A stretch of DNA of 64,000 nt from an uncultured Bacteroidales bacterium (GCA_964521285.1 CAZFQS010000003.1:9749-73748), one strand, 5' to 3'; positions 6,667-23,367 are shown, counted from the stretch's first letter. Numbers and translations are program-made. Notes: a model not told the origin generated them from the sequence alone.

Positions 6667-7863
6667 TCATTTAATTAATATCTTTATCAATTTGGTATTC
6701 GGTTCCAGGTTCTTAAGGTTTTTTCTGTCCCATTCAACGATTCTGAAATCACCCTTGTAATCCCAGTTTGCATAGGCAATACAATTTTCTCTGAAAATAT
6801 CTGTTATATCCTGATAATATTTCAGTCTTGTTTCTTCCTGTATTGATGGAAGGCAGCCAAACTCATTGCAGTAAAGCTGCAACCCCAGTTCCTTTGCTTT
6901 ATCAATGGCTTCCTGGAGAATAGACTGAAGTTTATCTTTATTATAAACATCTCTTGCTTTCTCTTCCTCTAACCTTAACATAAGAGCTTCATTTGTTTTA
7001 TCAACGTATTTTTCAAATGCTGAATCGGGTATGCACTGCCCGGGGTACTGAACCGGTCCGTTGTAATATTGTGCAGGAGACCAGTATGCCTTATAATGTG
7101 TTAAAAAGTAGGGATGATAGGTATGAACGCTTAATATTATATTTTTGTCGTTCTCCGGCACTTTAAGATATGGGAATGTATATGGTTTCTGCCACATGTT
7201 TGAGCCGATTATTATAACCCTCTCCGGTTCTTTTTCCCTTATTATTTTAACTGCCCTGGCAATAAGCCTGTTCCATTGTTCATGATCCGGGGCAACAGGT
7301 TCGTTCATTATTTCATAAGCAACCTTATCATTCGGATAGTCACTCAAGTATTCCGACAGATTTTCCCAGAGCTTCATAAGATTATTCTGTGCAACTGTGT
7401 CACTCCATAATGTCATTTCACCTTCGTTATTTCTTGCATTGAAGTGATGTGAACGCAAAATATGAAGGTCGATAACAGCTCTGAGTCCGAATTCTGCGCA
7501 CCAGCTGAGGCAACTTTTGACATATTTCAGTGATCGCTCAATGATATCACCGTTTTCATCCCAGAGCTCTTGCTCATCAATTGGAATTCTAATGTGATCA
7601 AAGCCAAAGCCGTGTATGAGTTTTATATCTTCCCTTGTTATAAACTTATCCTTTGGAGACCATTCCCTTGTCTGTGACATCCAGTGGCTGAGATTTACTC
7701 CTTTTCGTATTATGAATCCGGATGGATTTGTTACATACTCAGGTGTATCTGACTGTACTGTATCTTTATTTAAATGGCCTCCCTCTCCTGATTTTCTCCC
7801 GCATGAAAACATAGTTAAAATTACAAGTATAAAGTAAAGTAAGGTAACAATTTTTTTTCTCAT
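6667..7863 (-). CDS. glycoside hydrolase family 5 (cellulase/mannanase-type) lipoprotein
   Basis: FDHIRIPI, YEIMNEP (acid/base Glu), HTYHPY and CNEFG (nucleophile Glu) are in GH5 order. Lipobox FSC. Confidence 0.8.
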   Translation of the reverse strand: MRKKIVTLLYFILVILTMFSCGRKSGEGGHLNKDTVQSDTPEYVTNPSGFIIRKGVNLSHWMSQTREWSPKDKFITREDIKLIHGFGFDHIRIPIDEQELWDENGDIIERSLKYVKSCLSWCAEFGLRAVIDLHILRSHHFNARNNEGEMTLWSDTVAQNNLMKLWENLSEYLSDYPNDKVAYEIMNEPVAPDHEQWNRLIARAVKIIREKEPERVIIIGSNMWQKPYTFPYLKVPENDKNIILSVHTYHPYFLTHYKAYWSPAQYYNGPVQYPGQCIPDSAFEKYVDKTNEALMLRLEEEKARDVYNKDKLQSILQEAIDKAKELGLQLYCNEFGCLPSIQEETRLKYYQDITDIFRENCIAYANWDYKGDFRIVEWDRKNLKNLEPNTKLIKILIK

Positions 7864-8066
7864 GATATAATTCTCCCTTTAATTTAGCATAAAGTGCTAT
7901 TGCTAAAATAGGCATAAAACATTTAAAATAAAGACTGAAATTTGTATTAATTACAAATCAGATTAGAAAAACAATAGCAAAATTGTAATTGTGAGAAAAC
8001 TATTTACTAATAAGAAAAATAGGGGACCTACAAGCTTTCTCATGTTCTCTGAAAGAACAGTTATTT

Positions 8067-8816
8067 CTATTTAATAATTCTCTTTTTAACAAGGTTCCAT
8101 GACTGTGTTATCAAAAAGCTTTCATCCATATTTTTTACCATTTCCTTAAATCGTTTCATTGGGATCGCAAAACTTAAAGTATTTGCCGGAACACAGGGCC
8201 GTGCAGAAACATCAAACATCCCTATAACACATTTTGGATTTTTCAAATTCGACTCATTTAACGGAAAACTAATTATAGAGGAGCATCCCGATCCCATAGG
8301 TGCAATAACACCATGTTGATCAGCTATATCAAAATTTGCTAATGTAAAAAGACCTGATAAAATATCAGGAGTAGCAAAGAAGATAATAACCAGAGGCTGG
8401 TCTTTTTCCGATAATTTATCCCATCGCTTGAATACCAGATACCTTGCAGGTGCTTTAAAAGGTGTATTTTTTCTCAGAAAATCTTTTACCAAATCCGGTG
8501 ATTTTTTATATCGCTCACCTTCCATTTTACCAGGGATGCCGTAAGATAAGAAATATTCAAAATCTGGCCGCAGACTTTGCGAAAAACCAGAATAGCGCTT
8601 GCCCCCTAAGCATCCGGGACTCTCCGAACTATATATAAAAGTATAACCCTCCCTGACACGATTTAAATTACAAATCAAACACCGGTGTTCTTCCTTAGTT
8701 TCACTGACCTCTTTCTCAGAAACTTCATCAGTATAAAAATACGCAATGGGTAACCCTGCCTCATTAAAATATTTTTTCCATTGAAGCAGGAATAATTCTC
8801 TAAATTCTAAATCCAT
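8067..8816 (-). CDS. DUF169 domain-containing protein
   Basis: 249 aa. The N-terminal WKKYFNEAGLPIAYFYTDE and the Cys-containing core resemble DUF169 (COG2043) proteins. Confidence 0.6.
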   Translation of the reverse strand: MDLEFRELFLLQWKKYFNEAGLPIAYFYTDEVSEKEVSETKEEHRCLICNLNRVREGYTFIYSSESPGCLGGKRYSGFSQSLRPDFEYFLSYGIPGKMEGERYKKSPDLVKDFLRKNTPFKAPARYLVFKRWDKLSEKDQPLVIIFFATPDILSGLFTLANFDIADQHGVIAPMGSGCSSIISFPLNESNLKNPKCVIGMFDVSARPCVPANTLSFAIPMKRFKEMVKNMDESFLITQSWNLVKKRIIK

Positions 8817-9007
8817 AATAAAATCTTTTATGCATTTGGGATGAATTTCTCTATCAAATATAATTATATTATGAGTGTAAAAATCCGGTTATTTCTCTCT
8901 ATTGTTGAAAAAAGTAACCATTCGATTGTAAAAATTATACTATTTTTAATTAAAATTTCATCCATTAGTTAAAAGTGTTAATTTTGTATTAAACCTTCCA
9001 TAATATT

Positions 9008-9592
9008 ATGATTAGCTACACAAAAGATAAACTGGAAAAAATTGGCAATGCAATAATATATTTTACACAAAATATTCCGGATTTATCAAAAACAAAACTT
9101 ATTAAATTATTGTATTTATTGGAGGAATGCTTCATAAAGAAATATCAACTTCCCTTCCTGGATATTGAATTTGAAGTATGGCAAGCCGGGCCCGTTAACA
9201 GGGAAATATTTATTGAATTATCAGATGAACCTTTAATGTTAAAAGATTACATTATTAAAGAGCTTGATGAAGATGCAACATACATTAAACCCAAACAAGA
9301 GTTTTCAGATAATGAGTTTTCAGATAATGAGTTTGAAATGCTTGATTTTATAATCAAATCTTTCGGAAACAAAACTGCCGCTGAATTGGTCAACCTAATT
9401 CATAAAAAAAGTTCACCCTGGTATATCATTGCCGAAAGAACCGGATTACTAAGGGCTTTTAATGACGGTTTATTAAACTCATCTGATATTAAAATTGATT
9501 TAAGTGAGTTTTATTGCGATAGCAAAAAGACAAGTGAGCAATATAGAGAACAAAAAATGTTTAACCGGTTTGCTCAACAGTTCTCTATTTAA
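9008..9592 (+). CDS. Panacea-domain (DUF4065, SocA/PanA-like) antitoxin
   Basis: KLIKLLYLLEECFIKKYQLPFLDIEFEVWQAGPV matches the hallmark KLxKLLY..(F/W)xAWxxGPV segment of DUF4065. Confidence 0.7.
   Translation: MISYTKDKLEKIGNAIIYFTQNIPDLSKTKLIKLLYLLEECFIKKYQLPFLDIEFEVWQAGPVNREIFIELSDEPLMLKDYIIKELDEDATYIKPKQEFSDNEFSDNEFEMLDFIIKSFGNKTAAELVNLIHKKSSPWYIIAERTGLLRAFNDGLLNSSDIKIDLSEFYCDSKKTSEQYREQKMFNRFAQQFSI
9299..9334 (+). repeat. 15-bp in-frame tandem repeat (GAGTTTTCAGATAAT x2.4; EFSDN-EFSDN-EF) inside the PanA-like gene
   Basis: Direct reading of 9299-9334. Confidence 0.9.
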
Positions 9593-9771
9593 TGTATACA
9601 GCAGGTAACATTCTATATTTTACTCCATTCTACTTTCCTGATGGTGGTTCTGCAGCTAAAAACAAGTATTTTATTATACTTAAGATTGATAATGACACAG
9701 GAATAATAGCAAGTTTACCAACAACAAAAGATCATATTCCTGATTTTATTGAAAAAAACATGGCTGCATAA
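9592..9771 (+). CDS. unannotated 59-aa ORF, candidate truncated toxin partner of PanA (weak MazF/PemK-like N-terminal pattern)
   Basis: Own translation: MYTAGNILYFTPFYFPDGGSAAKNKYFIILKIDNDTGIIASLPTTKDHIPDFIEKNMAA. Its start overlaps the PanA stop (TAATG). Confidence 0.45.
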   Translation: MYTAGNILYFTPFYFPDGGSAAKNKYFIILKIDNDTGIIASLPTTKDHIPDFIEKNMAA

Positions 9772-9786
9772 ATGTCGATAGCATAA

Positions 9787-10554
9787 TCATGGTTTAAAAT
9801 AATAACCTTTACCATCGCAAACCAGACAATCAGGGATTTGTCCTTTACACATGCATTCAAATGCATTTTCGGGTAAATAGTTTTGATTTTTTTTCTTCTC
9901 ATTGATAAACAAATCTATACCCAGCCAATCATCCCAGCTTATCCATCCTTTTAATTTATAAGCAATGTTTGGGAATGCATAAATGTTCTCAGGCTTTTTA
10001 TATTTATTCAATAATCCTTTACAATAATTTATCCATTCGTTATATGATTTTAGCTTTAAATTCCTGATGAATTTTCTTGTGGTTTTGAAATTTTTAAAAG
10101 CAATTCCGGTTCCTAACCAGTCTTCCCATCCTTTCCAGCCTTTATTGCAATATTCAAGATCAGGTTTTACGGGTATAGTTAACCCATATTTTTCATTAAT
10201 AGAACTACCCTGCTTTATGTATTCCTGCCAGTTAGAAGTATTTTTTAATCTTAAACATCTTACAAAATCCCTTGACTCCCGGAATGATGAGTATTGTTTC
10301 CTGTACTTTTTATCCATAAGCCAGTCACTCCAGCCACGCCAGCCTGTGTGTCTGTATATTTCATCAGGATTGGGAGGAATATTCGCAGGCAGGGTATTAT
10401 TAAGCTTACCCTGTATAAACTTGTTCCATTCCTCTTTGTATTCTAAATTAAGCGTTCTTACAATTTTTCGTGCCTCCTCAAATGATAACCATTTACTCCT
10501 ATTTGGGGAATCCCACAAACCAGGTGATTTCACATTGGACTTTTCAGAACACAT
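9787..10554 (-). CDS. repeat protein: three ~60-aa units each ending GW(x)(G/S)W(x)DWL(G/M), plus a C-terminal CxC..CxxCxGxG zinc-finger-like tail
   Basis: Units end YRHTGWRGWSDWLM, YCNKGWKGWEDWLG and YKLKGWISWDDWLG. The tail is CMCKGQIPDCLVCDGKG. Reminiscent of 'integrase repeat-containing' annotations, but no recombinase domain is visible. Confidence 0.6.
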   Translation of the reverse strand: MCSEKSNVKSPGLWDSPNRSKWLSFEEARKIVRTLNLEYKEEWNKFIQGKLNNTLPANIPPNPDEIYRHTGWRGWSDWLMDKKYRKQYSSFRESRDFVRCLRLKNTSNWQEYIKQGSSINEKYGLTIPVKPDLEYCNKGWKGWEDWLGTGIAFKNFKTTRKFIRNLKLKSYNEWINYCKGLLNKYKKPENIYAFPNIAYKLKGWISWDDWLGIDLFINEKKKNQNYLPENAFECMCKGQIPDCLVCDGKGYYFKP

Positions 10555-10825
10555 TTGCTTATAATTTAAATTTTTTGCAAAGTATATTATAAATTAATGA
10601 AAGTCCATTTTTCAGAGTATAAAATTCAATTAACTTAATCATGTCAACAACCGGTATTCATATACTAATAATAACAGGTAAATCGGTTGTCGATACTATT
10701 TATTTTGTATTTTCAGGAGTGGTACACATTTGAATATCGAAGCTGGTATACTTTGCAATATATTTAAGATAATGATTATTATGTATTAATTTACTTAAGG
10801 TATTTAAACTAAATTCTGTTATGAT

Positions 10826-11188
10826 TTAAATAGAAGAAAGAAAATTTTTAAGGTCGTTTTTATTAGTAAACGAAGTAATGGCTACATGATCGTAATCATT
10901 GCAGTTAAACCTGTCTGCCGACAGGCAAGATTCCTGTGAATGTTGAACTGCTTTAAGCATTGAACTGACATTTTTATTTATATGCTTAAATTGCCATTTA
11001 ATGTCAGCTGTTTTCAGATATTTTAAGAACTCATCGGCAAATGACCGGGATATAAAGGTGATATTGGTGAAGTCAAAAATATAACGTTCCTTAGCTTTCA
11101 GTTTAACATTTTTACTAAGCTTATTAATAGCCCTTCGGGTTGAAATATGCGAAGGGAAAAAGTCCTGTATGTATACTGTTTGCTTCAT
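10826..11188 (-). CDS. STAS-like DUF4325 domain protein
   Basis: 120 aa. FDFTNITFISRSFADEFLKYL matches the core of DUF4325. Confidence 0.6.
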   Translation of the reverse strand: MKQTVYIQDFFPSHISTRRAINKLSKNVKLKAKERYIFDFTNITFISRSFADEFLKYLKTADIKWQFKHINKNVSSMLKAVQHSQESCLSADRFNCNDYDHVAITSFTNKNDLKNFLSSI

Positions 11189-11247
11189 ACCATAAAAGTA
11201 TTAATTTTTATTTTTATAACAAAGATCATTCAATGTAGTTTGAATAA

Positions 11248-11376
11248 TTAAATCCTTTTGGTGTTATTTTTGGTATTCTTAAGGCAAGCATCGTGCCATT
11301 CCACACCTTCCACAATCCTTATTTCCTCATCCATAAGGCCGTAGAGCTGGTAGACTATTTGATCAATCTCAGAAAG
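11248..11376 (-). pseudogene. remnant C of a methyltransferase C-terminal tail (LSEIDQIVYQLYGLMDEEIRIVEG...), in frame directly after the DUF3800 stop codon
   Basis: Own translation of the minus strand. About 70 percent nt identity by eye to the genuine tail at 15294-15372. Confidence 0.7.
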
Positions 11377-12306
11377 TTAAAATACTAACCGTTGCTGGCC
11401 TGACTTTTGCTCAATATAATACAGGATTCTCCTGGAATAGAATTGATTTTTCAACCTTCTAATATCACCCAAGACTGTTTTTTCTAAAGGGAAAAAACTT
11501 ATCATAATACGGTTATAGTATTCAAATTGGCTGTTTTTATTCTTTGGATTGTCAATAATTCTTTTAAACAAGTCAACATACAGATCAGCTAATTCTTCTC
11601 GATATTTTGAGCTTCCACTTTTTTTGATACCATGAATAATGCTTGTGCTTACACCCAATAAAACATCACATAATTGAATTAAATTTGAACACCTATCTTT
11701 TTTATGATCTTTAGGTAGAAAGGTAATTTTGTTGCAATTGAATAGAATGGTTTTATCTTTTTCCAGTTTATAGAAAATATGCCGGGAAAAATAGAGATGG
11801 TTTTGCTGCTGACCTTCCTCATGAAATATGTTTTCGACAATAATCTTTCTCCCACCGAAAAATGTTTTTAAAGCATATAAAAGAGTGCTTCTAAAGAATC
11901 GATTATATTTACTATTGAATTCGTCGTCTGTATTGAATTCTTCTCTAATCAGATAAGAATCATTTAACCCAAGTATATAGGAATAAAATTTCCTTCTGCT
12001 TTTATTGGGATTAAGGATATACTCAAACCATCGTTTACAAATATTTTTTGTATCAGCGATTCTTATTTCGCACCAATGCACTATTTTATTGTTCTTTTCA
12101 TAATAATTGGAATTTTTGTTAAAGTTGCCTATAAATCTTTCGTATATAATGTCATCAAGCAAAGGATGGTCTATATCTTCGACAACTATCCCGATATAAT
12201 TCCATACATTGTTAGTGTAAGGACAGAGCTTCCCCTGAACTTCATCTGCATAGATATTGATACGAATTGGGTCCTGATGATACTCGTTCCCAAATAAATC
12301 CCTCAT
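11377..12306 (-). CDS. DUF3800-like protein
   Basis: 309 aa. N-terminal INIYADEV and distal ITFLPKDHKKDRCSNLIQLCDVLLGV resemble the DUF3800 DE...QxxD pattern. Assignment is by eye only. Confidence 0.5.
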   Translation of the reverse strand: MRDLFGNEYHQDPIRINIYADEVQGKLCPYTNNVWNYIGIVVEDIDHPLLDDIIYERFIGNFNKNSNYYEKNNKIVHWCEIRIADTKNICKRWFEYILNPNKSRRKFYSYILGLNDSYLIREEFNTDDEFNSKYNRFFRSTLLYALKTFFGGRKIIVENIFHEEGQQQNHLYFSRHIFYKLEKDKTILFNCNKITFLPKDHKKDRCSNLIQLCDVLLGVSTSIIHGIKKSGSSKYREELADLYVDLFKRIIDNPKNKNSQFEYYNRIMISFFPLEKTVLGDIRRLKNQFYSRRILYYIEQKSGQQRLVF

Positions 12307-12311
12307 TATTA

Positions 12312-12383
12312 TTAACTCTTAACGATTTTAATTTCTTCCTCAGTCAGGCCTTTAAGTTGATAGACCATCTGGTCAATCTCCCG
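12312..12383 (-). pseudogene. remnant B of a methyltransferase C-terminal tail (REIDQMVYQLKGLTEEEIKIVKS*)
   Basis: 23 codons preceded by an in-frame TAG. 50 of 57 nt are identical to the genuine tail. Its stop lies 5 nt before the DUF3800 ATG. Confidence 0.8.
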
Positions 12384-12405
12384 CTAAAGCTTGTTTTTTC
12401 AAAAA

Positions 12406-15297
12406 TTATCTAATGTTATATTTATTTTTTCTTTGTTCGAATGCGACCCTTCCTCCATCCAAGATTTCACAAGCGTGTTCACACACGCCTTGAGATTTGA
12501 GTGTATCTTTACATTTTTCGTCTTTTGTTTTTGTATATTCAAGACTACCAGTAAGATAATTGAATTGTCTCCCATCTATATTTTCTCTATCAGTTCCATG
12601 CCTATTCGCAATAATTACCTGCTCAGAATCTGATCCAATTGCTAGATTTGCATTGTGACTTACCATAATAATCTGTCGTTCTTTTTTCTTTTTTTTCAAA
12701 AATGGAACAATATCATCGTAAATTGACCTGCTATCCAAATCGTCTTCCGGCTGATCAATCAACAACGGCCAAATATCTTCGGATTCTGCAAGTATTAACC
12801 TTAGTAGGAACAACGCTCGTTTCCCCGGTGTCATTGTTGGTTCAGAAAATCCACCAATTTTATCTCCTTCCATTTCGGCATTAAAGAGAATTTTTTCGTT
12901 CAGTGTTAAAACATCTCGAGCAACCTGTATTTTTTCATTCCCCTTAATTATTTTTTGCTCACCTGAATACAGAGCAGATAAAAAATCACCTGGGGTTTCT
13001 CTGATCTTACCGATAATCAATGTGCCACTATCAATGAAATTAGATTTTCCCTTGATGTATATTTTTTGCGTGACTTCCTCAAGGTTTTCATCAAACCCAT
13101 ATTCCATTCCAAATTTAATACCCTCAATAGCGCTCTGATCTGCGCTATCTATATTTGTTCCCAATTCTTTTATAAGAGTATTTCTTTTATCCATACAAGA
13201 TTTGATGACTTCCTCACATTTTTCTAACTTAACTTCCAAATTTTTCTTTTCGATCGCCGTCTCATTGATTTTTTTAATTTTTTCTTCATGCTGGTTTAAT
13301 CTTTGAACATGCACCTCCAGTTCAACATTTTTCTGATATTTCTCGATAAGATGTTTATTTTTCCCCTTAATTTCTGAGGTAGTTTTCTCCAAATCCGACT
13401 TCTCTTTTTCGATCATTCTTTTATAATATAGAATCTTCTTATTGACATCTTTCAGAATCCCATCCTCTTTTTCCTTCAAGAACATACTAATTGCATCTTG
13501 GAGACCCTTCGGTAAACTTGCCAACGCTGGAGAAAGAGTAATCTTTAATTCATTAAAAAAATGCTGTTCTTCAGAAACATTAGAAATTTGTGAGATTTCC
13601 ATATTTATTACATCTATTCTACCCGCATGTTTTAATAGATCAGCATTAATTTCTTGATACTGCTTTAATTCTTCATTGCTCAACTGATTTTTCTCTTTCA
13701 AATTTTTTATTTTTAATTCAATCTCTTCTTTCACTTTTTCAATGGCTTCCTTATTTCCCAGATTCTTAAGTTGCTCGTTAAGTAATTTGATAGATTCAGA
13801 AAAATCAAACCAATTATCAATTTGACCCGAGATTTGCTGATTATATAAACCTATATTTTTTTCTGCTTGTTCGTACTTAATTTTAAAATCAGGGAGAACT
13901 TTAAACAAAACGGGTTTGATTTTTTCTTTGATTTCATTTGAATTTTTACTTTCCTTAAATAAGTGATTCTGGGGGATGTAAACAATTTTCCCTGGGCTTT
14001 CATCATTTGATTTGCCATTACCCCACTCAATTGAATGTTCAATATTTATTTTCTTCCAGTGATAATCTTCTCCTTCTCCCGGACCTTCAACCAATTCTTC
14101 GGCCAGTTCTTCATCGACAGAATGTGCTACATAAGCAAGTAGCGCTGATTTGCCTGAAGACCGGCTCCCTATAATTGAACAAAAGTTTTTATTAAACTCG
14201 ATTTCTTCAGGAAAATCATTTGTATTGGTAAATCGAATCTTTGATATAATTTTGTATCCATCTTTTTGATCAGGCTCAACCGGGTTTATTTTAACACGTT
14301 CACCAGGTTCAGGCTCATAGATAATTTGCTTTAATCCTTTAAAAGTTGGGTCGGCTTTGATCCATGTATAATCATTAGTTTTTCCACTTGATGGATGAAA
14401 CAGATTTTCTTCAGTATGCGCATCTGAACCCCAAATGCACGGCTTATAATTCCTAAAACGATTAAAGATTTCATCTTTTGGTGTATCTTCTTTTTGGCCC
14501 AACAAGAATTGGATATCATTATCATCGTTAGAAAAGCACACATCAGATAAATTCAATAGATTCTGTCTTATGTTTCCAGCTCGGGACAAATCCTTTTGCT
14601 TGCCCTGCCAATTAAAAGCAGATAGACCACCCGCACCTTTGTTCGCAATGATTATCAAATATTTATCATCATTGATCCCGGATTTCTTCAAGATCTTTTT
14701 AAATTTCTCAATACCATCATCGAAAATAGAACTAGAGAAAGTAATTACTTTTAGTGCTTTATTGATTAGAGTGTTCTTCTTTTCATCATTAATAGAACAT
14801 AAATCTAAATTTGCATCATAATGTCCGTTATTTTCTTCAGCGTTCCCAATTCTTATTAAATCATCGGCTTTGCAGTTTAAATCAAAAGACTGGTATTTGA
14901 TCGTTAATTTTTCCAGAAATGAATTTCGAATTGTTGAAGGTAGGATATCAGGAGAAAAAACCACATGAATATTTACAGATTCATTATCACTTGTAAAATT
15001 TTCCAATCGCAATTCGACTACAGGAAAGAGATAAAGCAATATGTCATTGCTTAGTTTTATGCAAGGTCTTATCTTTCTCGAGTCTTTTTCACATTCTCCC
15101 AATAGTCTTTCATAACCATCAACGGAAAAATAGTCGTTGATCCCTACCACCTCTACGTCATGTGCAACAGCTTTTTCTTTAAGCTTTTCAATATATGTAT
15201 CCCAGCCATCAAAGTCATTTTCATAAGAAACAGGCGTATGCACATGCAAATCCCATTTCCGCCATTCAGAACCTTTTTTAAATTTTGTATTATTCAT
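12406..15297 (-). CDS. PHP-domain phosphoesterase fused to an ABC/SMC-type coiled-coil ATPase (Ppl-like architecture)
   Basis: WDLHVHTP..GINDY..GSDAH (PHP metal ligands). Walker A GSRSSGKS. A ~350-aa Lys/Glu-rich coiled-coil region. Walker B/D-loop LLIDQPEDDLD, followed by IIMVSHNANL. The start overlaps the MTase stop (ATGA). Confidence 0.75.
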   Translation of the reverse strand: MNNTKFKKGSEWRKWDLHVHTPVSYENDFDGWDTYIEKLKEKAVAHDVEVVGINDYFSVDGYERLLGECEKDSRKIRPCIKLSNDILLYLFPVVELRLENFTSDNESVNIHVVFSPDILPSTIRNSFLEKLTIKYQSFDLNCKADDLIRIGNAEENNGHYDANLDLCSINDEKKNTLINKALKVITFSSSIFDDGIEKFKKILKKSGINDDKYLIIIANKGAGGLSAFNWQGKQKDLSRAGNIRQNLLNLSDVCFSNDDNDIQFLLGQKEDTPKDEIFNRFRNYKPCIWGSDAHTEENLFHPSSGKTNDYTWIKADPTFKGLKQIIYEPEPGERVKINPVEPDQKDGYKIISKIRFTNTNDFPEEIEFNKNFCSIIGSRSSGKSALLAYVAHSVDEELAEELVEGPGEGEDYHWKKINIEHSIEWGNGKSNDESPGKIVYIPQNHLFKESKNSNEIKEKIKPVLFKVLPDFKIKYEQAEKNIGLYNQQISGQIDNWFDFSESIKLLNEQLKNLGNKEAIEKVKEEIELKIKNLKEKNQLSNEELKQYQEINADLLKHAGRIDVINMEISQISNVSEEQHFFNELKITLSPALASLPKGLQDAISMFLKEKEDGILKDVNKKILYYKRMIEKEKSDLEKTTSEIKGKNKHLIEKYQKNVELEVHVQRLNQHEEKIKKINETAIEKKNLEVKLEKCEEVIKSCMDKRNTLIKELGTNIDSADQSAIEGIKFGMEYGFDENLEEVTQKIYIKGKSNFIDSGTLIIGKIRETPGDFLSALYSGEQKIIKGNEKIQVARDVLTLNEKILFNAEMEGDKIGGFSEPTMTPGKRALFLLRLILAESEDIWPLLIDQPEDDLDSRSIYDDIVPFLKKKKKERQIIMVSHNANLAIGSDSEQVIIANRHGTDRENIDGRQFNYLTGSLEYTKTKDEKCKDTLKSQGVCEHACEILDGGRVAFEQRKNKYNIR

Positions 15298-18200
15298 AAT
15301 GAATTCTCTATAATTTTAATTTCTTCCTCCGTCAGGCCGTATAGCTGATAGACAAGCTGGTCAATCTCCCTCTCCAATCCTCTCGTATCCGCATGCGGAT
15401 TCGCTCGCTTCGTTACAAAGATGCGGTCTACAAGTTCAAGGATTGGCTTTTGTTTTTCATCAGTTGCTTGAACTATGGGAAATTCTTTCACATAGTTGTT
15501 AATCCAGCGGTTTACTCCCATACCGCTTGTTTCAGCAATAAGTCCTAAGTAAAAATAAATCAATCTAGAATTAAGTATGCCAAGCAAATATTTAACGTCA
15601 ATTGCAGACGGGGGTAGTAAAAAATATGCTGAGTTCAATAAATACATTTCGTCTACACATAAAGCAAAACGTCCATTGTCAGTTAATTCTATCCATACAA
15701 TTTTATGTTTCTTAAAATCATCAAAGAATGCGACTGCTCTTAAGTTTGTCCAATGTTGACCTTGAGCACCGCGTTTTTTGAATGATTGTCCAAATCCGTC
15801 GAGATATTGATATATGTCAGGATAATCCTTCTTAACATTCACTCCATTCTTTGTGAGCAAAATATATAAATTAGGAAATTCATACCTATAACGAAAAATG
15901 TCTCGCCCTCGTAAAATCGGCTTAATTATTTCAGCGTTTTTGTGGTTTAGTATAATAAATTCTTTTCTTTTGTTTTCATCGATAATAAAAGCATCGTTTT
16001 TGCCCGTTGCTAAACCAAGCCGAATTTTTGCCCCAAGTTGCTCAAGAGTTTTTCCAGCCTTCTTAATTTTCTTTTGTATTAATACTTTTTCTGTCTCAAT
16101 TAGACTCCATGATTTTAATTCAAATATTTCTTGAGTGTAATAAAAACCCCTTGCTGTTACATATCCTGCAAAATTCTGAATGTCACCAGAGAAGGGTTTA
16201 TTAAAAACAAAACACTTTCTGCCAATTTTGTCTTTTGTTGAAATAAGGATTGCAACGTTTACAATCGCATCTTCAAAAATCTGGGCATCCTCAAGATTTA
16301 TAATACCAAGAAGTTCATTTTCATTTCTTAGTAATTTTCTGAGCGGTGATCCATATTCGGCTCGCAAGTATGAATTTGATGTAATAAAAGTCGAAATACC
16401 TTTTTTGCTTTGTAGGTTAACTTCTTTCTCAATAAAGTAACAATAAATATCCGCAAATGGTTCGTAAGAGCGGTATTTTTCTTTCAGCAAATTTTTACCA
16501 ATTGAAATTTTGTCGTGGCTAATATAAGGTGGATTAGCAATCACCACATCAAACCCTCCCTTCCTATGAAACACCTCCGAAAAATACACCTCAAAATCAA
16601 ATTCCTTATGCCCATTGGTAATCTTACAGATCAGCTCATCAATCTGCTTTTTGTATTCCTGCTTTTTGGTCGGATTGGTTTCGTTGAAATATAGCGGTTT
16701 TAAGTTTTCCAGTTCTGTGAAAAGCTGGTTGTTGAACAGATTTTTCTCAACGCCCAGCAGGGAATTTCCGCAAACAATTTTATAATCGAGGTTGGGCAGG
16801 GGCTTGATGTTTCTAATGTCCTCCTCATCCACCATCAGCGATAGCCATAACCGCAGTTTTGCAATTTCCACTGCGCCGGGGTCAATGTCCACACCGTAGA
16901 GGGAATACTCTATGCACTGGCGTTTGAAATCGTAGTGCTTTCTTTTTTCTTTATTGGTAATGAAAGTGGTTAACACCGTTCTTGCCTTAACAATTTCGTT
17001 CATCATGCCCAAGGGGAAGGCACCGGAACCAACTGCCGGGTCGCAGACTGTAATCTCCGCAAGTTTTTGATCAATGAGTCCTGGATTTTTATGTATACTT
17101 TCAGGAAGCATTAATTCATAAACAGATGTTTTTTGTTTCCCTTCGTTTATTTTTTGTTTCTTGATCAATGCTATCTCTTCATTCTCACTGATATGCTCAC
17201 CCATATGAATCAGCATTTCAATATCTTCTTTTAAAATTCCTGTACCAGTATTGTGTTCAATCGTCAGATCCAACTGTCCTTTTTTTATTTTATTACCGAA
17301 CATATCTAAATTATTATCACCAAATTTTTCATAACTTACCTTATCATTATTCAGTTCATTAAACAGATAATTTATTAAACTCTGCTGGCACATGTAATGC
17401 ACGATTTCGCGTGGAGTGTAATACACACCGTACTGCTTGTTAAATTTGGTTTCTTCGCCTTTTTTTCCGCTCTTTAAGGCTTTTTTGTACTCCTCAAAGT
17501 TGTCGGGACGGATGGCGTTGAATTTTTCATAAGCCTTACCCAGCAGTTCAGGATCAATGGCGACTTCTTTTTCAAGCGGCTCGTCTTCTTTCACTGTAAA
17601 ATTGTAGCCGTCAAAAATGTCGAAAATACCATCGCCAATATCACCTTCACTCGTCTTTCTTTTATTTGAAAACAGATCGTCCGGTAAACATATGTCAGTA
17701 TGAACCCAGTTGTAATTGCTAATGGGTTCAAACAGCCCACCATTTAAGAATGGGATCTTACATTTAAAATGATCGTTCCAATGATCAATATCTGACCGGT
17801 CTCTTGACAGTGCATCATAAAAGAGCGGCTCTAAAATGTCGTTGAAGAAATTCCTGTAATCACCATGTTTTTTCTCAAACAGCTCTCTTAAAAATTGTTT
17901 GGAACCTGTTCCCCATTCAGCATCTCTTGCCACACCAAACCAGCCCTTTTTCTGGAGAAAATAAAGAAAAACAATCTGTCCCAGCAGTTTCTTTGCAAAG
18001 GCAACAGTATTTATGCCTTTAGTTTCAAAATCGGCATGGATTTTAGTATCGTTTTTAATTACTTTATCCAGCGCTTCTTTGGTGCGTATAAACAGCTCAC
18101 GGTATTTGATAAAAAATTCTCTTGTAACTGTTTCAATATTGAAGGCTTCTTCCAGCACTGTAAGGGTCGGATTGTGTTCATCGTCTGCCAGAATTTTAAC

Positions 18201-18716
18201 CAGCCGGCTCTGGGCGGTATGGCTGTTTTCATTGGTACCAACGAGGAAAGACCAGCGCCGGGCAGGGGTGAACTCTTCTTTCACCTTGGTTCTGCCGGTT
18301 TTGGTTTGCTCGAATTTGTATTCCATCTTAACCAGCGAAAACCGCCAGTCGCATTCATCCGGTGAGACAAAAGCAACCAAAGCAGCATCCTTTTCATTTG
18401 AACTGCCGTATTTCCCCTGTAAATATCCGGCAACAAAATTGCGCTGACTGGAACGTGCATGTTCAAGCGAAGTTTCCTTTTGCAATTTAATTATCAGTAT
18501 ATCAATTCTATTCTCTCCATCATTAAACTTGCCAATCCTCTCAAATGTGCTGATAAACTGCTTGTAAGCATCGGGAATATATTGACCTTGCCGCTGAGGG
18601 ATATAATCCTCTTCAATGCGATTTAACAGATTTTTAATGAAGCCGGTAAATCGTTCCTTATTAAAAAAATTTTCAAAAGTCTTTTCGATGATTTTTTTTG
18701 CTTGTTGTTTATCCAT
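15294..18716 (-). CDS. Eco57I/PglX-like gamma-class N6-adenine DNA methyltransferase with TaqI_C-like target-recognition domain
   Basis: 1140 aa. Motifs YYTPREIV, CDPAVGSGAFP (motif I) and VVIANPPYI (motif IV, NPPY at 16524-16535). C-terminal tail REIDQLVYQLYGLTEEEIKIIE. Confidence 0.85.
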   Translation of the reverse strand: MDKQQAKKIIEKTFENFFNKERFTGFIKNLLNRIEEDYIPQRQGQYIPDAYKQFISTFERIGKFNDGENRIDILIIKLQKETSLEHARSSQRNFVAGYLQGKYGSSNEKDAALVAFVSPDECDWRFSLVKMEYKFEQTKTGRTKVKEEFTPARRWSFLVGTNENSHTAQSRLVKILADDEHNPTLTVLEEAFNIETVTREFFIKYRELFIRTKEALDKVIKNDTKIHADFETKGINTVAFAKKLLGQIVFLYFLQKKGWFGVARDAEWGTGSKQFLRELFEKKHGDYRNFFNDILEPLFYDALSRDRSDIDHWNDHFKCKIPFLNGGLFEPISNYNWVHTDICLPDDLFSNKRKTSEGDIGDGIFDIFDGYNFTVKEDEPLEKEVAIDPELLGKAYEKFNAIRPDNFEEYKKALKSGKKGEETKFNKQYGVYYTPREIVHYMCQQSLINYLFNELNNDKVSYEKFGDNNLDMFGNKIKKGQLDLTIEHNTGTGILKEDIEMLIHMGEHISENEEIALIKKQKINEGKQKTSVYELMLPESIHKNPGLIDQKLAEITVCDPAVGSGAFPLGMMNEIVKARTVLTTFITNKEKRKHYDFKRQCIEYSLYGVDIDPGAVEIAKLRLWLSLMVDEEDIRNIKPLPNLDYKIVCGNSLLGVEKNLFNNQLFTELENLKPLYFNETNPTKKQEYKKQIDELICKITNGHKEFDFEVYFSEVFHRKGGFDVVIANPPYISHDKISIGKNLLKEKYRSYEPFADIYCYFIEKEVNLQSKKGISTFITSNSYLRAEYGSPLRKLLRNENELLGIINLEDAQIFEDAIVNVAILISTKDKIGRKCFVFNKPFSGDIQNFAGYVTARGFYYTQEIFELKSWSLIETEKVLIQKKIKKAGKTLEQLGAKIRLGLATGKNDAFIIDENKRKEFIILNHKNAEIIKPILRGRDIFRYRYEFPNLYILLTKNGVNVKKDYPDIYQYLDGFGQSFKKRGAQGQHWTNLRAVAFFDDFKKHKIVWIELTDNGRFALCVDEMYLLNSAYFLLPPSAIDVKYLLGILNSRLIYFYLGLIAETSGMGVNRWINNYVKEFPIVQATDEKQKPILELVDRIFVTKRANPHADTRGLEREIDQLVYQLYGLTEEEIKIIENSL

Positions 18717-18819
18717 ATTTGTCTATTAGAGCCGTTGTTGAGCCTGTTAATTTATAAAAAGTACACTATATTGAAATAAATGGCTTTTGTTTTATTCGGC
18801 CATATTCTGATCGAATGGT

Positions 18820-18847
18820 GGCCAATTCGACCAATTACCGGCCAATT
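18820..18847 (-). promoter_or_regulatory. three 8-bp direct repeats G(G/A)CCAATT spaced 9 and 11 bp, in the gap between the AlbA_2 gene and the MTase gene (candidate operator)
   Basis: Copies at 18820-18827, 18829-18836 and 18840-18847, plus a related GGCCATATT at 18799-18807. Confidence 0.3.
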
Positions 18848-20168
18848 AATTTTTAAGTTCATATTTTGCACCTCTTCCCTTTGTGATCGGCTCGGTTAAC
18901 AATCCTATTTTAACTAACTTCCTGAGGTCTTCTGTCGCCGTTGTTTTCCCTACATTATTGATCTTTTGATACATAGAGTTATTAATAGAGCCTTCCCCCT
19001 TTACATACATAACCGCTTTAATTTGTCTTTCATTCAATCCCATTTTTTTAAGATTTTCCAGATTCCATTTGTCTTTGTAGAAAATCACTGTCATGACCCC
19101 ATTTTGCTCATAGAAATCCGGTTCTGGCAATCCACCCTCCAAACACTTTTCAACAATCATGTTAGTACCCCTGCCCCAGGCTTCAATAAAGCCGGCATAA
19201 TAAAAAATGCCCGCCAGCAACTTATTTCTCGGCATGGACAGATGATTCGTTTTAAGCTTTTCCACCGGCACTTCTGGCGGTAAACTGCCGGCATTCATGA
19301 TGATTAGTTTATCCGGATAGACTCTAACCTGGATCTGCGAAAAACCCCAGTAATCTCGATGAATGAGCGCATTAATAATCGCCTCCCGCAATGCTTCATA
19401 AGGATATTCGAGTATATCCCGGCGATGAATGCCTTCATATTTTATATTGCTCAGCAGGTACTTGGTTCGGAGAATTTCCAGCGTATTTTCCAACTGCTGG
19501 AACAGATTACCTTTGACAATATCGGTCGTTTGAATATCGGTATCAGTTAAGAAGCGTCCGATCTTTACATATGCGTGGCTATAAAACCGCTGCGGATCTT
19601 TCCCAAAAAGAAGAATTGCAGCTCGCTTCAAATGTTGATTTTCGATAAGATTTAATTTCTGCAAAATATTAACGAAATCTGTTTCACGGACAATCGAAGG
19701 GATTCGATCAACAGCATATCGCTTAAAATCTTCTATGGTCGGTTTATCGAGAAGATCCAATTCGCCCTTATCGTCAATGGCATCGTCCCAGGTAATACCT
19801 GATTTTTTTATCAGGAAGCCGGACAGCTCTTTTCCTCTTAACTCCTGAATTGTGCTACCGCTTCTGATATAAAATTTGCCATTATATGAAATCGGGTCTG
19901 ATGAAGGAATAATCTTTATCCGGATTATTTCAAGGTCATTTTTCTTTTCTGATTCCACAAAGGGAATGATACCAAGTTTATTACGGATTTTGTTGGGAAT
20001 GTCTTCCAGTAATTTTTTTGAGTTCGCCAGTCCAACATGTTGTCCCTGGTCATTTAATCCAACAATGAGTTGTCCGCCTTTGCTGTTGGCAAAAGCAGAA
20101 ATCACCTTCAGGTGTTCATCTCTCCAGATGCTCTTAAATTCTATTCTATGTGATTCTTTATTGGTCAT
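18846..20168 (-). CDS. AlbA_2 (Schlafen-like) DNA-binding domain + HATPase_c_4-like + C-terminal wHTH protein (often annotated RecG-like/transcriptional regulator)
   Basis: ESHRIEFKSIWRDEHLKVISAFANSKGGQLIVGL is the AlbA_2 signature. EAIINALIHRDY is typical of the HATPase_c_4 part. The start lies inside the helicase 3' end, with GGAGG 6 nt upstream. Confidence 0.75.
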   Translation of the reverse strand: MTNKESHRIEFKSIWRDEHLKVISAFANSKGGQLIVGLNDQGQHVGLANSKKLLEDIPNKIRNKLGIIPFVESEKKNDLEIIRIKIIPSSDPISYNGKFYIRSGSTIQELRGKELSGFLIKKSGITWDDAIDDKGELDLLDKPTIEDFKRYAVDRIPSIVRETDFVNILQKLNLIENQHLKRAAILLFGKDPQRFYSHAYVKIGRFLTDTDIQTTDIVKGNLFQQLENTLEILRTKYLLSNIKYEGIHRRDILEYPYEALREAIINALIHRDYWGFSQIQVRVYPDKLIIMNAGSLPPEVPVEKLKTNHLSMPRNKLLAGIFYYAGFIEAWGRGTNMIVEKCLEGGLPEPDFYEQNGVMTVIFYKDKWNLENLKKMGLNERQIKAVMYVKGEGSINNSMYQKINNVGKTTATEDLRKLVKIGLLTEPITKGRGAKYELKN

Positions 20169-23100
20169 TTGAACCTCCGATTAAATACAAAGACAAAATC
20201 ACTTCCCGTTTGCCGAAAACTGCCGGATTTTGTTCAGCATAATGTTCTTCAAGAAATTTTGCCGGAATATGTGTTTGAAGCACTGCCAAAACCTTAAAAG
20301 GATTGATGATTTCATTCCTAAGACCGTTCAAGGCTTTCAGGGTTTGTTTAGCTGTTTGTTTCGGTATATTGCCTTCCTCAATCCGTTTTAATACTTTATT
20401 AAGATACAATTCCTGATCATCAGTAAACTGCCGGGTATTATTAATAGTTACTTTAAGTATTTTAAGGATTTGTGCTGTGCTTTCCCGCCTGCTTGCTGAA
20501 CCGGGTTTTGGCATTTCCTCAGTAGTTGCAATAATAAAGGCGTTTTTATTTTTATCCAGCATATTGTAGAATTGCTCCTGTAATTTTTTCTTTGGTTCAT
20601 CGGGATTGCTTTCCAGCAATTTTGCCGCAGAGATAAAATCGAGTTCGGTTGCTTCCGCGTGGTCTGTAGCCAGAAAAAACTTTTGTAGTTTACCTCTGCG
20701 GAAATAAGTGAGTAAAGAATCCGTCTGCTCAATGTGATATTTTGCGGTACGGGCTTTTTTAGGCAATCGTTTTATTTTTTCAAACAGGTCAGGGTCATTA
20801 TCGCGAATCTCTTTGATAGTATGAAGATACTTCAAATCACTTTCCGCTGCTTCGTCTTCTCCTTCAAGAGTCTGCTTTGAAATCAATCTATTGAAGAGTT
20901 CGTGTGAACCAATGGGTTCACCTTCGGTTAAAAGCTCGGCATCACCACCCAAAAGGGTCAGAAAGGCATTTATTTTCGCTTCAGCTACCTCTTTAAGCTT
21001 AATCTGGTCGTTGGATTGCGCTGTGGGGAAGAAATTAAAGGTGTAAATAGTATCATGTCTGGTATCCACACGGTTTATACGGCCTACTCTCTGCATCATT
21101 CTTGTCGGATTCCAGGGAATATCGTAGTTAATGACCGTGTTGGAACGGTGCAGGTTTACGCCTTCGGACAGTACTTCCGTAGAAACAAGTATCCTGTGGT
21201 TATCTTTCGGATGACGTGAGCGGACATCAAAATTTTCAATAACCTTGTCACGTGTAGCTTCGCCCGAATCCCCTGTATAGCATAATACGCTACCGGGAAA
21301 TCTCTCATGAAGGTTTTTGTACAAATAATTGGCAGTTTCCTTTGATTCAGTGAATATGATGAGATGATTTTCTTTAAAAACGGATGTTGATGTTAGCTCC
21401 CTCATAAATTTGAGCAACTTCGGGTCACGGTCGATATGTGTCCAGAGCTTTTTTACTTCCAAAAGAATATCATGATCGTGTTGTAAATCGCTTCTCAATA
21501 CTTCATTGAATTCTGTGCTATCGTACCGTTCCGCTTTGCCCTCATCAATAAGGCGCTGCACTGCTTCATCGTCATCGTTCTCCAAAAGCTCGAAAATTTT
21601 ATTTATATGCTTTTTACTCACATAAACATTGCCGTTATCAAATTCCCTGATAAACATCTCATAGGAGTGCAGGAATCGATCCACCGAATTCATAAAGGCA
21701 AAGAAACTGCTTTCAAGCCGTTTGACCAGCAGGATTTTCATGAATCTGCCCATGTTGCGTTGGGATTGACGTTCCAGTTGATCAATCCTGCCCTGATAAT
21801 AGAGCATGGGCATGTAACGGGCATACCTGAACTTCTGAGCAATCAGCTCTATGGTTTTACTGAATATCTCATCCTCTTTTTCATTGAGTTCATAAAAAAG
21901 CGGTGCAGGCTTTTCAACATAGGGAAATTTCAATCCCTGTCTTATAATATCGTTTGAAAAATATTTCTCAATCTCAGTACGGGTTCGGCGCACCATTAAA
22001 TATTTAAGGACTTTTCCCCTGATTTCCCGGGAATTTTCTTTTACAATACTGATATATTTATCATAATCTTTCTGGCGATCCAGTTTTTTCAGTTTCTGTC
22101 CAAGTCTACCAAAAAATCCTTCCAGATCAGGCAGGTTAGGAATAGTGCTTTTCTTTGCCGGCTGGAATAACTTTAACAGGCTGAGAATATCTTTAGGGGC
22201 ATTGTTGTAAGGAGTAGCTGTAACCAGGATTACCCTTTTGCCGCGGCAAATCTCCGCCAATTTTTCATAGGTAACCGTTGTTTCAGTTCTAAAACGGTGA
22301 GCTTCATCGATAATTATATTGGTGTATTTATCGGTCCCTCCGTATAGTAAGTCATCGAGTTTACCAAGTGATTCAAAATCAGCCGGTATGCGAAAATCAG
22401 AAAAAACATTCCGCCAGGAACCGGGATTGGTCTTTTCCAGCAGCACCGGCGGGGCGATGACCAGTGTTCTACCGTCAAGCTGGCCTGCAAGCATAGTAGA
22501 AATGTATGTCTTTCCCAATCCAACCACATCCGATATAAAGACACCTCCGTATTCCAGAAGGATTTTTTTTGCATTTAAAACTGCCTGTTCCTGATATTCG
22601 AGTTTTTTAAACTCCGGCGGGAGATATTTTACAAACACTTCATCTGTCTGGCCAAGTTCATCTTTAAAATATTCATAGAGAAATTTCAAATAAAGCTGAT
22701 ATGGAGTGATATTTTGACTGAGCCATGTTTTTTCCTGGATGGTTTGAATATACTTTTCGCTCACATCAACGGCATCTTTCCATAATTCTTCAAATTTCTG
22801 CCTGGCAAACTCATAATCATTGCAATTTTTCAATTCTACATTAAATTCCAGGTTGTCAATAAGCCCTGCCTGAGTAAAGTTACTTGAGCCTGTAATCACT
22901 CGTCCGGTATCCCTGTCGCCTTCACAAAAAGTCATAATGTAAAGCTTGGCGTGGATATTTTGTGAGGGATAAGCTTTTATTTCCAATTTTTTGCTCCTAA
23001 TCCATTCGATAAACTTAATAACGCCTTCTTCAACTTCTTGTCGGTCTTCTGAATCAATTAGTTCCTTTTCTACAAGCTCTTCCACTCTTTCTTTAGTTTC

Positions 23101-23367
23101 AGCATGCGAAAATTCCATGACCTGCTGCTTTGGCTTATTAGCCCTGACAAGTAAATCATAGGTTTGACGGTTGGCGCTGATACCAATCAATATTCTTATC
23201 TTTTGCGTATTTTCCAGGGATTTATATATGGCATGGAAACCACTGGTATAGAAATAACCCACAAGGCAGTCAAAAAAAGAAGTGTCTTTTATCAATACTT
23301 CAAATCTGTCTCTTAAGGTATAGTTTTTATCGTTTGTTAAAAATGATAAATCAGTATTCATAAGCAT
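20158..23367 (-). CDS. PLD-family nuclease domain fused to an SNF2/DEAH superfamily-2 helicase
   Basis: One HKD motif (NIHAKLYIM...GRVITGSSNFT). Helicase motifs DVVGLGKT, IIIDEAHRFR, LVTATPYNN and STEVLSEGVNL...QRVGRINR. Confidence 0.85.
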   Translation of the reverse strand: MLMNTDLSFLTNDKNYTLRDRFEVLIKDTSFFDCLVGYFYTSGFHAIYKSLENTQKIRILIGISANRQTYDLLVRANKPKQQVMEFSHAETKERVEELVEKELIDSEDRQEVEEGVIKFIEWIRSKKLEIKAYPSQNIHAKLYIMTFCEGDRDTGRVITGSSNFTQAGLIDNLEFNVELKNCNDYEFARQKFEELWKDAVDVSEKYIQTIQEKTWLSQNITPYQLYLKFLYEYFKDELGQTDEVFVKYLPPEFKKLEYQEQAVLNAKKILLEYGGVFISDVVGLGKTYISTMLAGQLDGRTLVIAPPVLLEKTNPGSWRNVFSDFRIPADFESLGKLDDLLYGGTDKYTNIIIDEAHRFRTETTVTYEKLAEICRGKRVILVTATPYNNAPKDILSLLKLFQPAKKSTIPNLPDLEGFFGRLGQKLKKLDRQKDYDKYISIVKENSREIRGKVLKYLMVRRTRTEIEKYFSNDIIRQGLKFPYVEKPAPLFYELNEKEDEIFSKTIELIAQKFRYARYMPMLYYQGRIDQLERQSQRNMGRFMKILLVKRLESSFFAFMNSVDRFLHSYEMFIREFDNGNVYVSKKHINKIFELLENDDDEAVQRLIDEGKAERYDSTEFNEVLRSDLQHDHDILLEVKKLWTHIDRDPKLLKFMRELTSTSVFKENHLIIFTESKETANYLYKNLHERFPGSVLCYTGDSGEATRDKVIENFDVRSRHPKDNHRILVSTEVLSEGVNLHRSNTVINYDIPWNPTRMMQRVGRINRVDTRHDTIYTFNFFPTAQSNDQIKLKEVAEAKINAFLTLLGGDAELLTEGEPIGSHELFNRLISKQTLEGEDEAAESDLKYLHTIKEIRDNDPDLFEKIKRLPKKARTAKYHIEQTDSLLTYFRRGKLQKFFLATDHAEATELDFISAAKLLESNPDEPKKKLQEQFYNMLDKNKNAFIIATTEEMPKPGSASRRESTAQILKILKVTINNTRQFTDDQELYLNKVLKRIEEGNIPKQTAKQTLKALNGLRNEIINPFKVLAVLQTHIPAKFLEEHYAEQNPAVFGKREVILSLYLIGGSNDQ

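Follow-up and report, generated by a model that had tools for sequence, protein, structure and literature searches.

Why should the 3' end of one methyltransferase (MTase) gene recur, always in the same orientation, beside two further genes of the same locus? The question is raised by a 64-kb stretch of DNA from an uncultured Bacteroidales bacterium (GCA_964521285.1 CAZFQS010000003.1:9749-73748), hereafter the window, in which coordinates are counted from the first letter. On its minus strand, which holds all genes of the array, the order of transcription is a PLD/HKD-SNF2 helicase, a Schlafen gene, the MTase, an ATPase of 963 amino acids (aa), a 309-aa open reading frame (ORF) and a 120-aa ORF. 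Our analysis leads us to think that the conserved MTase tail probably acts as a short portable homology patch, through which modules made of a tail and an accessory gene are joined by recombination.

Three tail copies in the window

Copy A is the true C-terminus of the 1140-aa MTase ORF (15294-18716), which ends in LEREIDQLVYQLYGLTEEEIKIIENSL and a stop codon. By translation and a profile of the tail, its functional 25-codon C-terminal tail, LEREIDQLVYQLYGLTEEEIKIIEN, spans 15303-15377, and the MTase stop overlaps the ATG of the next gene as ATGA (15294-15297). Tail B, delimited at 12312-12389 by translation, repeat search and alignment, is an orphan of chimeric make-up (see below); it reads REIDQMVYQLKGLTEEEIKIVKS up to a stop codon, has an in-frame TAG directly before it and joins the next gene as TAA-TAATA-ATG. 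Tail C, also an orphan, occupies 11248-11376, begins with LSEIDQIVYQLYGLMDEEIRIVEG and comprises a core (11305-11370) and an 18-codon run-on to a stop at 11248. It lies in frame with the 309-aa ORF, and only the TAA of that ORF separates the two. A preliminary description of this DNA had already placed three same-strand tail copies here, and translation, repeat search, tblastn and a hidden Markov model (HMM) of the tail all agree with it. Its further particulars held as well, namely the TAG before copy B, the zero gap and shared frame between the 309-aa ORF and copy C, the spacing of 0-5 nucleotides (nt) after the tail stops of A and B, and an identity of A and B at 50 of 57 nt, which is exact.

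A direct-repeat search returned A, B and C as its top family, with B 81% identical to A over 78 nt and C 62% identical. Within the 57-nt core, C matches A at 44 positions at best. When the 57-nt core of A was scanned along both strands of the window, the best match elsewhere reached 31/57 (mean 14.6, standard deviation 3.3), against the earlier caution that the similarity might be no better than expected. In tblastn, tail A found B with E=4e-9 and C with E=2e-8, the next best match in the window having E=0.15, and the tail HMM scored A at 46.9, B at 36.3 and C at 33.6 bits over a noise level below 10 bits. Chance similarity of the tails was rejected on the basis of the 57-nt scan and the gap in tblastn to the next match. 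Assemblies of two further samples (L140 and L141; comparison loci carry L numbers) independently gave the identical arrangement, and the arrangement of a relative is present in three contigs (L091-L093), so that an assembly artefact can be rejected.

Extra tails in related MTase loci

The MTase belongs to a very large family, in which the last ~25 residues are among the best conserved of a 36-member alignment (consensus LExxIDQLVYxLYGLTxEEIKIVEG). We built a 25-position tail HMM from 36 homologous MTases and applied it to all six reading frames of 80 genome loci retrieved with the family alignment; scores were bimodal (>20 or <10 bits), and 63 of the 80 loci carry the tail. The census also drew on 46 viral-contig loci and on targeted look-ups. 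Extra strong tails were found in L005 (two tails), L014 (two), L019 (three, in tandem with a 123-nt period) and L056 (four), and on the opposite strand in L062. L022, which belongs to an isolate genome (Thermoflavifilum thermophilum), has an MTase 3' remnant of ~70 codons after a DUF3800 gene. Low-scoring possible remnants in L041, L046, L060, L065 and L066 were left uncounted, since similar scores occur upstream and on the other strand. Across the 63 loci, with 440 kb downstream and 465 kb upstream scanned, seven orphans lay downstream on the same strand, two downstream in convergent orientation and none upstream (p=0.001). Repeat lengths vary from 17 to ~75 codons, and the repeats that flank inserts measure 66-78 nt in the window and ~110 nt in L014. 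Longer 3' fragments also occur, such as two ORFs of 249 and 130 aa that end in tails in L062 and a third remnant of ~75 codons in L056.

The genes between tails are defence or toxin-antitoxin (TA) genes. L056 holds AAA_13, Hypoth_Ymh and Schlafen/HATPase_c_4 genes with a 114-aa ORF, L005 holds DUF433 and DUF5615, L014 a 220-aa protein of unassigned function, L022 the DUF3800 gene, and L062 MazF and a HicB-like gene, a pair that lies between convergent tails. The tail HMM census thus found the tail-bounded pattern of the preliminary description again in independent loci with different cargo. The first gene after the tail is highly varied in the family (OLD-type AAA_15-TOPRIM, AAA_13, RhuM, UvrD, DarT, ThsB-TIR, reverse transcriptase and FRG genes) and starts no more than 12 nt from the MTase stop in about 26 of the 63 loci, often with an ATGA overlap. 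This variety and tight spacing mark the post-tail position as a hypervariable slot for tightly coupled accessory genes, whose products presumably cooperate with the MTase system.

Three loci showed further arrangements of the tail. In L019 a 123-nt unit, which joins the final 36 codons of the MTase to the stop and a further 12 nt, is repeated 3.3 times in tandem at 9350-9760, with no cargo in between; nearly all differences of copy 3 from copies 1 and 2 are synonymous, and the partial fourth unit ends before the EREIDQ block. L131 (2124-4022) has two tail motifs ~920 nt apart within one 632-aa ORF, which looks like an internal duplication of the target-recognition domain (TRD) and tail within an MTase, comparable to two-TRD specificity proteins. 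In L062 (13294-15552, minus strand) and L118 (12943-13784, minus strand), truncated tail-ending ORFs (249 and 130 aa) run convergent to the main MTase and look like a decayed second array on the opposite strand.

Mosaic breakpoints at the tails

The preliminary description had proposed to see whether related genomes vary at these junctions, and L081/L082, L091-L093, L142 and L143 vary exactly there. In L081/L082 the order is MTase tail, ATGA, a TrlF-family gene 78% identical at the protein level to that of the 963-aa ATPase, a 22-nt spacer and an orphan tail, and the junction of TrlF end, spacer and remnant is homologous to that of the window. A sliding comparison of the window with L081 gave ~70% identity in the MTase core and, across the unrelated TRD, ~50% with many gaps. 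From ~15350, within tail A, to ~12350, within tail B, identity rose to 80-93% free of gaps, and then fell to ~50%; the genes downstream of the L081 block are unrelated to those of the window.

L091-L093 represent the same chromosomal locus in a relative, with the 309-aa, 120-aa and 255-aa, SocA and DUF169 genes syntenic and 77-86% identical in nucleotides. Here homology to the window starts at ~12350, again in tail B, and upstream lies a different ATPase that is 25% identical to TrlF. In a three-way alignment of tail B, the left ~30 nt and the spacer are L081-like, and the right ~45 nt and the 309-aa gene are L091-like; we conclude that tail B is a chimera. At the switch point (~12350-12358) the window has an aberrant CTT AAA (L-K), where both relatives have CTC TAT (L-Y).

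L145/L146 share the chromosomal context of the window and are 92.7% identical to it over 23455-16753 (helicase, Schlafen gene and MTase core). Their TRD is unrelated to that of the window, a 207-nt patch made of the pre-tail, tail A and the first 17 cargo codons is homologous at 78%, and past the patch the L145 cargo retains 28-30% protein identity to the TrlF of the window. The closest full-length MTases, those of L142 and L143, cease to match the window within the final codons of tail A (at 15312 and 15319, respectively), and different genes come next. Five independent comparisons thus put breakpoints in or at tails, and these mosaic boundaries argue for recombination within the tail.

Two side observations concern the same comparisons. 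The first 17 residues, MNNTKFKKGSEWRKWDL, are identical in the otherwise distant ATPases of L145 (11381-11433) and the window (15245-15297), which shows that the 5' end of the cargo gene belongs to the shared 207-nt patch; directly after MNNTKFKKGSEWRKWDL the HVH of TrlF, a PHP-type metal motif, is replaced by QIQ in the relative. The island is also more alike than its housekeeping flanks. When 16753-23455 of the window was compared with L145/L146, and 7178-12350 with L091, the helicase, Schlafen gene and MTase core were 92.7% identical and the right part ~86%, compared with 76-78% for folE, fabD, the epimerase and the cellulase, a pattern that suggests recent exchange of the island between lineages.

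Origin and decay of the orphan tails

Codon differences between tail copies of one locus were biased towards synonymous changes in every locus tested (P<=0.05, all pairs). Tails A and C differ by 8 synonymous and 6 non-synonymous codons, where random substitution would give 2.0 synonymous ones; the tails of L014 differ by 7 and 2, and those of L019 by 6 and 1. Such a bias is unexpected for an untranslated duplicate drifting in place, which indicates that the orphans are 3' ends of other, once-functional MTase alleles. This is also what the preliminary description had envisaged in its proposal that modules were joined and MTase bodies lost, the orphan tails being relics of other MTase 3' ends. 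Tail C is 60-65% identical in nucleotides to A or B, next to a median of 63% to random tails of the family, and A and B are reciprocal best matches. The most divergent copy is the distal one, in the window as in L056, which fits insertion at the MTase-proximal position.

The orphans are in different states of repair. The orphan tail of L081/L082 (L081 6258-6344) has an ATG directly before LEREID and forms an intact 28-aa ORF; at the matching positions (window 12312-12395) tail B shows AAG in place of ATG, an acquired TAG, and K where Y is nearly invariant. In L083-L086, whose contexts contain no MTase, TrlF is immediately preceded by a partial tail that has decayed and includes an in-frame stop, and the remnant in L088 contains one or more in-frame stops. 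Tail C is ~70% identical to its L091 ortholog, with many non-synonymous changes, compared with 86-95% in the flanks and ~95% in the adjacent intergenic DNA. Judged from these alignments, tail C is decaying faster than its flanks, and decay is what orphaned tails undergo in general. In L088 (6357-6990) a 204-aa cargo ORF without a stop of its own reads in frame into the orphan tail and ends in EVREYKKRIDQMVFDLYGFTN and a stop codon, so the C-terminus of that cargo is made of decayed MTase tail.

Proposed mechanism and alternatives

On the reading that we favour, tails as portable homology patches, the locus would encode a defence system of two genes, helicase-nuclease and MTase, the latter of which has the conserved ~25-codon tail as its end. 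The tail would be both the right-hand (3') arm for TRD swapping and the leader of a tightly coupled accessory gene just past the MTase stop. Recombination between loci, with crossovers in the MTase core and the tail or in two tails, would splice in modules of a tail and an accessory gene; the incoming tail would complete the MTase, and the earlier tail, pushed downstream, would stay as an orphan scar before the older accessory gene. The window would then hold two layers, tail A with the TrlF ATPase and chimeric tail B with the 309-aa RNase H-like gene, and would end in an old scar, tail C. Such an order of acquisition events is conjectural; as for the enzymology, either RecA-type or short-homology recombination might be at work, and an illegitimate join may have occurred when a cargo was first captured. 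The preliminary description had offered two readings, modules joined with loss of the MTase bodies and the tail as a recurrent recombination site; both find support, as two faces of one process.

Several points weigh against this mechanism. The patch is short, the longest exact runs shared by A and B being 14-17 nt at an identity of 79-88%, so little that classical RecA recombination would be at its margin. To capture a cargo for the first time, a non-homologous join on one side would be needed. The cargo stop lies only 0-22 nt from the next orphan tail, a tightness that random illegitimate joins do not predict and that we can explain only by selection or deletion bias or by inherited old junctions. 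Tails are more alike within than between loci, as duplication in situ would also give. Moreover, nearly all comparison loci are metagenome-assembled contigs, and L145 and L091, whose contigs do not overlap, are assumed to be the two halves of one relative's locus. A distinctly unlikely variant would make the tail a dedicated capture site, at which breaks or stalled processing, for instance by the system's own PLD-SNF2 enzyme or a host factor, actively recruit foreign genes into integron-like defence-gene arrays, newest first, that need no integrase; in addition, some orphan tails might be expressed as helix-mimic micro-proteins.

Could the repeats instead have arisen in place? Insertion with long target duplication (Nobusato/Kobayashi type) supposes that each accessory gene entered at the MTase 3' end in a single event, that 70-230 nt of the resident tail were thereby duplicated in situ and that the copies then diverged. 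It yields a target copy, the insert and a second target copy in the absence of mobility genes, as described for restriction-modification (RM) genes (PMC2853133), and it would suit direct repeats longer than 30 bp around the inserts of the window and L014, their variable length, and the higher similarity within loci (84-91% in L014, 77-91% in L056, and A and B as reciprocal best matches). L019 shows that tandem tail duplication can occur without cargo. We nevertheless consider this explanation unlikely, since an untranslated duplicate should drift randomly and the synonymous bias is present in all pairs; tail C is no nearer to A or B than to unrelated family tails, tail B is composed from two lineages, and the TrlF block with its flanking half-tails is shared with L081, a locus of unrelated TRD and downstream genes. 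A relative with an empty site, that is, a single target copy, was not found among the comparison loci. If whole modules of MTase and accessory gene had instead been stacked in tandem, with the internal MTase bodies later deleted and no crossover in the tails, the longer 3' fragments in L062, L022 and L056 and the signature of past purifying selection on orphan tails would be accounted for. Random deletion should leave 5' and internal MTase pieces too, however, and only 3'-terminal pieces are seen; the window remnants begin at the first codons of the conserved block, 0-22 nt past the preceding stop, and the breakpoints against three relatives lie inside tails, copy B being chimeric. Decay of tandem modules is therefore quite improbable.

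The arrays are ordered and of one orientation, their compact units hold a single gene each, every boundary bears a repeated element, TA cassettes occur, and the most divergent repeat is the distal one. These features recall a site-specific, integron-like system in which the tail DNA would be an att-type site and a dedicated recombinase would move promoterless cassettes. DNA folds of A, B and C compared with shuffles revealed no hairpin on either strand (z-scores from -0.30 to +0.98, in round figures -0.3 to +1.0). Tails of different loci share 63% of nucleotides on average, the level expected when degenerate codons specify a conserved peptide, and a conserved core at the DNA level is thus absent. 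Remnant lengths vary, the island (~9000-23400) contains no integrase or recombinase, and the breakpoints fall at different places within the tail (~15350, 15312/15319 and ~12350); a site-specific system is accordingly a most improbable explanation. Selection for function might also have kept the orphan tails, either as micro-ORFs that mimic the C-terminal helix of the MTase or as translation-initiation leaders for the cargo. Each cargo gene begins 0-30 nt past a tail or remnant, the 28-aa ORF of L081 has its own ATG, ORFs of 54-84 aa that begin with ATG contain the remnants of L005, L022 and L056, the L088 cargo ORF runs into its remnant and divergence is synonymous-biased. Against this stand copy B, with its missing ATG, its TAG and its K at the near-invariant Y, the in-frame stops in the remnants of L083-L086 and L088, and the ~70% identity of tail C to its L091 ortholog, with many non-synonymous changes beside an intergenic neighbour at ~95%; we hold retained function to be very improbable.

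Genes of the window

The first cassette carries a TrlF-family AAA-like ATPase of 963 aa (12406-15297), which matches NCBIfam NF045780 with 470 bits (cutoff 350) over residues 8-961 of 963. The NCBIfam Ppl model reached 93 bits (cutoff 1000) in the C-terminal ATPase part only, PADLOC Ppl matched residues 822-930 (3e-22), and the Pfam SMC_N and AAA_21 matches were below cutoff. On these scores the protein is a relative of Ppl that falls outside Ppl itself. Pfam detected no PHP domain in it; PF02811 appeared only in the precomputed Pfam annotation of a homolog, P0197, which together with the N-terminal motif WDLHVH suggests a PHP-like domain. The earlier label 'PHP-ATPase' thus gives way to TrlF-family ATPase, the Ppl match being weak.

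In the second cassette lies the 309-aa protein of an unnamed family (11377-12306), which the preliminary description had called DUF3800. It has no match in Pfam, NCBIfam or PADLOC, and none to DUF3800 (PF12686) at E<=1. When 27 members of its family were scanned for DUF3800, two reached E=0.38, and an hhalign comparison between the family and the true DUF3800 protein in L022 gave a probability of 1.5%. The DUF3800 identity was dropped, since none of the three tests produced a significant match. The AlphaFold2 model (pLDDT 90) has as its best match in the PDB RNase HII (1EKE; E=3.6e-4, TM 0.36-0.47), so that the fold is predicted to be RNase H-like, and given this model a remote relation to DUF3800 is possible. 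Homologs of the 309-aa protein lie immediately past an MTase tail in L087 and past a decayed remnant in L088 and L091.

The MTase (1140 aa, 15294-18716) is an Eco57I-family N6-adenine MTase with a TaqI_C TRD. Its Pfam matches include Eco57I (2.6e-39) and TaqI_C (8.3e-17), both above cutoff, as well as N6_Mtase and MmeI_Mtase, and PADLOC REase_MTase_IIG (PDLC03596) matches over the full length. A conserved core extends down to ~16753, followed by the variable TRD (~16753-15450). The family profile, 1132 positions long, matches the structures of CamA and BseCI as far as positions 1114-1119, and phmmer of the C-terminal 268 aa against the PDB returned no matches. Contigs L140 and L141, assembled independently from the same organism, end inside the MTase at ~16600-16900, near the boundary of core and TRD, which would fit strain-level TRD heterogeneity in the population. 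Pfam found no nuclease domain in the N-terminal ~540 aa of the MTase, and the adjacent PLD-SNF2 protein is the likelier nuclease.

That protein, the core partner of the MTase, is a PLD/HKD nuclease and SNF2-type helicase of 1069 aa (20158-23367; Pfam PLDc_2, SNF2-rel_dom and Helicase_C). It matches PADLOC 'HKD+Snf2', with weaker DrmD matches, and the same helicase type lies directly upstream of the MTase in L022, L062, L087, L143 and L145. Between helicase and MTase the window has a 440-aa protein with the Pfam domains Schlafen AlbA_2 and HATPase_c_4 (18846-20168). A gene of this type holds the same position in L088 and L145 and is absent from it in L022, L062, L087 and L143; in L142 the upstream Schlafen position holds only a 99-aa AlbA_2 fragment, and in L056 (16679-18028) the same gene type forms a tail-flanked cassette downstream of the MTase. 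We looked for a duplication of the helicase 3' end around the Schlafen gene, in the helicase-MTase interval, and found none.

Past the array, the first gene is the 120-aa ORF (10826-11188), which has only a sub-threshold DUF4325 match and is syntenic in L091, L140 and L141. The intergenic segment 11189-11285, between the run-on ORF of tail C and the 120-aa gene, is ~95% conserved in L091/L092, more so than the adjacent coding sequence, and may serve that gene as a promoter or regulatory region. The island (~9000-23400) is flanked on one side by folE and fabD (23686-25321) and on the other by DUF169 and glycosidase genes below ~8800. A Pfam scan of all ORFs in 8067-25321 found no integrase or recombinase domain and likewise no mobility genes. 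At the distal edge of the island, on the plus strand (9008-9771), a 194-aa SocA/Panacea-domain antitoxin-like gene is followed by a 59-aa ORF; the SocA region is conserved in L091, L140 and L141, and a SocA gene also follows the tail array of L014.

Significance and relation to known systems

The locus offers a sequence-level picture of how accessory anti-phage genes may be bolted onto a restriction-like system and then exchanged. A gene end of ~75 nt would be re-used as a seam, and the old seams would form a readable record of successive acquisitions, from which orphan tails can help to reconstruct the order. Orphan MTase tails are also a cheap and precise marker for new defence genes with exact boundaries; candidates are the 309-aa RNase H-like family and the unnamed proteins of 204, 220 and 179 aa. 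One short repeat would moreover tie together specificity (TRD) switching and defence-island turnover, which are usually treated separately. A literature search of incomplete coverage, which leaves novelty unproven, found related concepts and no account of orphan MTase tails that bound stacked accessory genes.

The closest described process is TRD reassortment or 'domain movement' (DoMo), which takes place at conserved repeats of 29-37 bp flanking the TRDs of Type I S and Type IIG genes (Furuta et al. 2011, PMC3077401); allelic TRD diversity is known in Type IIG genes (PMC2853133). As in DoMo, a short conserved coding repeat beside the TRD appears to serve as the crossover site with no dedicated recombinase evident, the number of units between repeats can grow or shrink (L131 has two units of TRD and tail in one ORF), and the TRD is replaced between the MTase core (16753) and the tail, both between the window and L145 at the same locus and between the window and L081. 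Unlike DoMo, in which a domain moves inside one gene, here whole unrelated accessory genes lie between the repeats, and every repeat copy after the first is an untranslated scar that is not part of an MTase. Insertion with long target duplication, known for RM systems (Furuta, Abe and Kobayashi 2010, PMC2853133), likewise gives direct repeats of tens to hundreds of bp and variable length that flank a defence-related insert, with no transposase or integrase. There, however, RM systems have entered unrelated targets and are flanked by nearly identical copies of the target, whereas in the present loci one and the same conserved gene end is always used and accessory genes are what is inserted; the copies appear to be allelic variants diverged under selection, and arrays reach up to four copies.

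Integron arrays resemble the present loci in their single orientation, in compact and largely promoterless units with a boundary repeat downstream of an expressed gene, in the presence of TA modules and in the distal position of apparently older units. They differ in IntI, attC-like hairpins and a conserved DNA core, all absent here, and here repeat length and crossover points vary and the repeat is protein-coding sequence. Accessory genes embedded in RM operons, such as prrC in the Type IC EcoprrI locus (PMC12707154), are a further parallel, since genes of abortive-infection or ATPase type (here, for instance, AAA_13) lie inside or right after an RM operon, are probably co-expressed with it and may guard it; descriptions of prrC concern function, and duplicated MTase 3' ends at the borders and stacking are not reported there. 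Finally, as in defence-island hotspots, cargo is exchanged at one constant site between conserved boundaries (fabD/folE to DUF169/cellulase), the island being 86-93% identical between two genomes and the housekeeping flanks 76-78%. Unlike in such hotspots, the conserved anchor here is ~75 nt within the defence system itself, and it would be copied at each acquisition.

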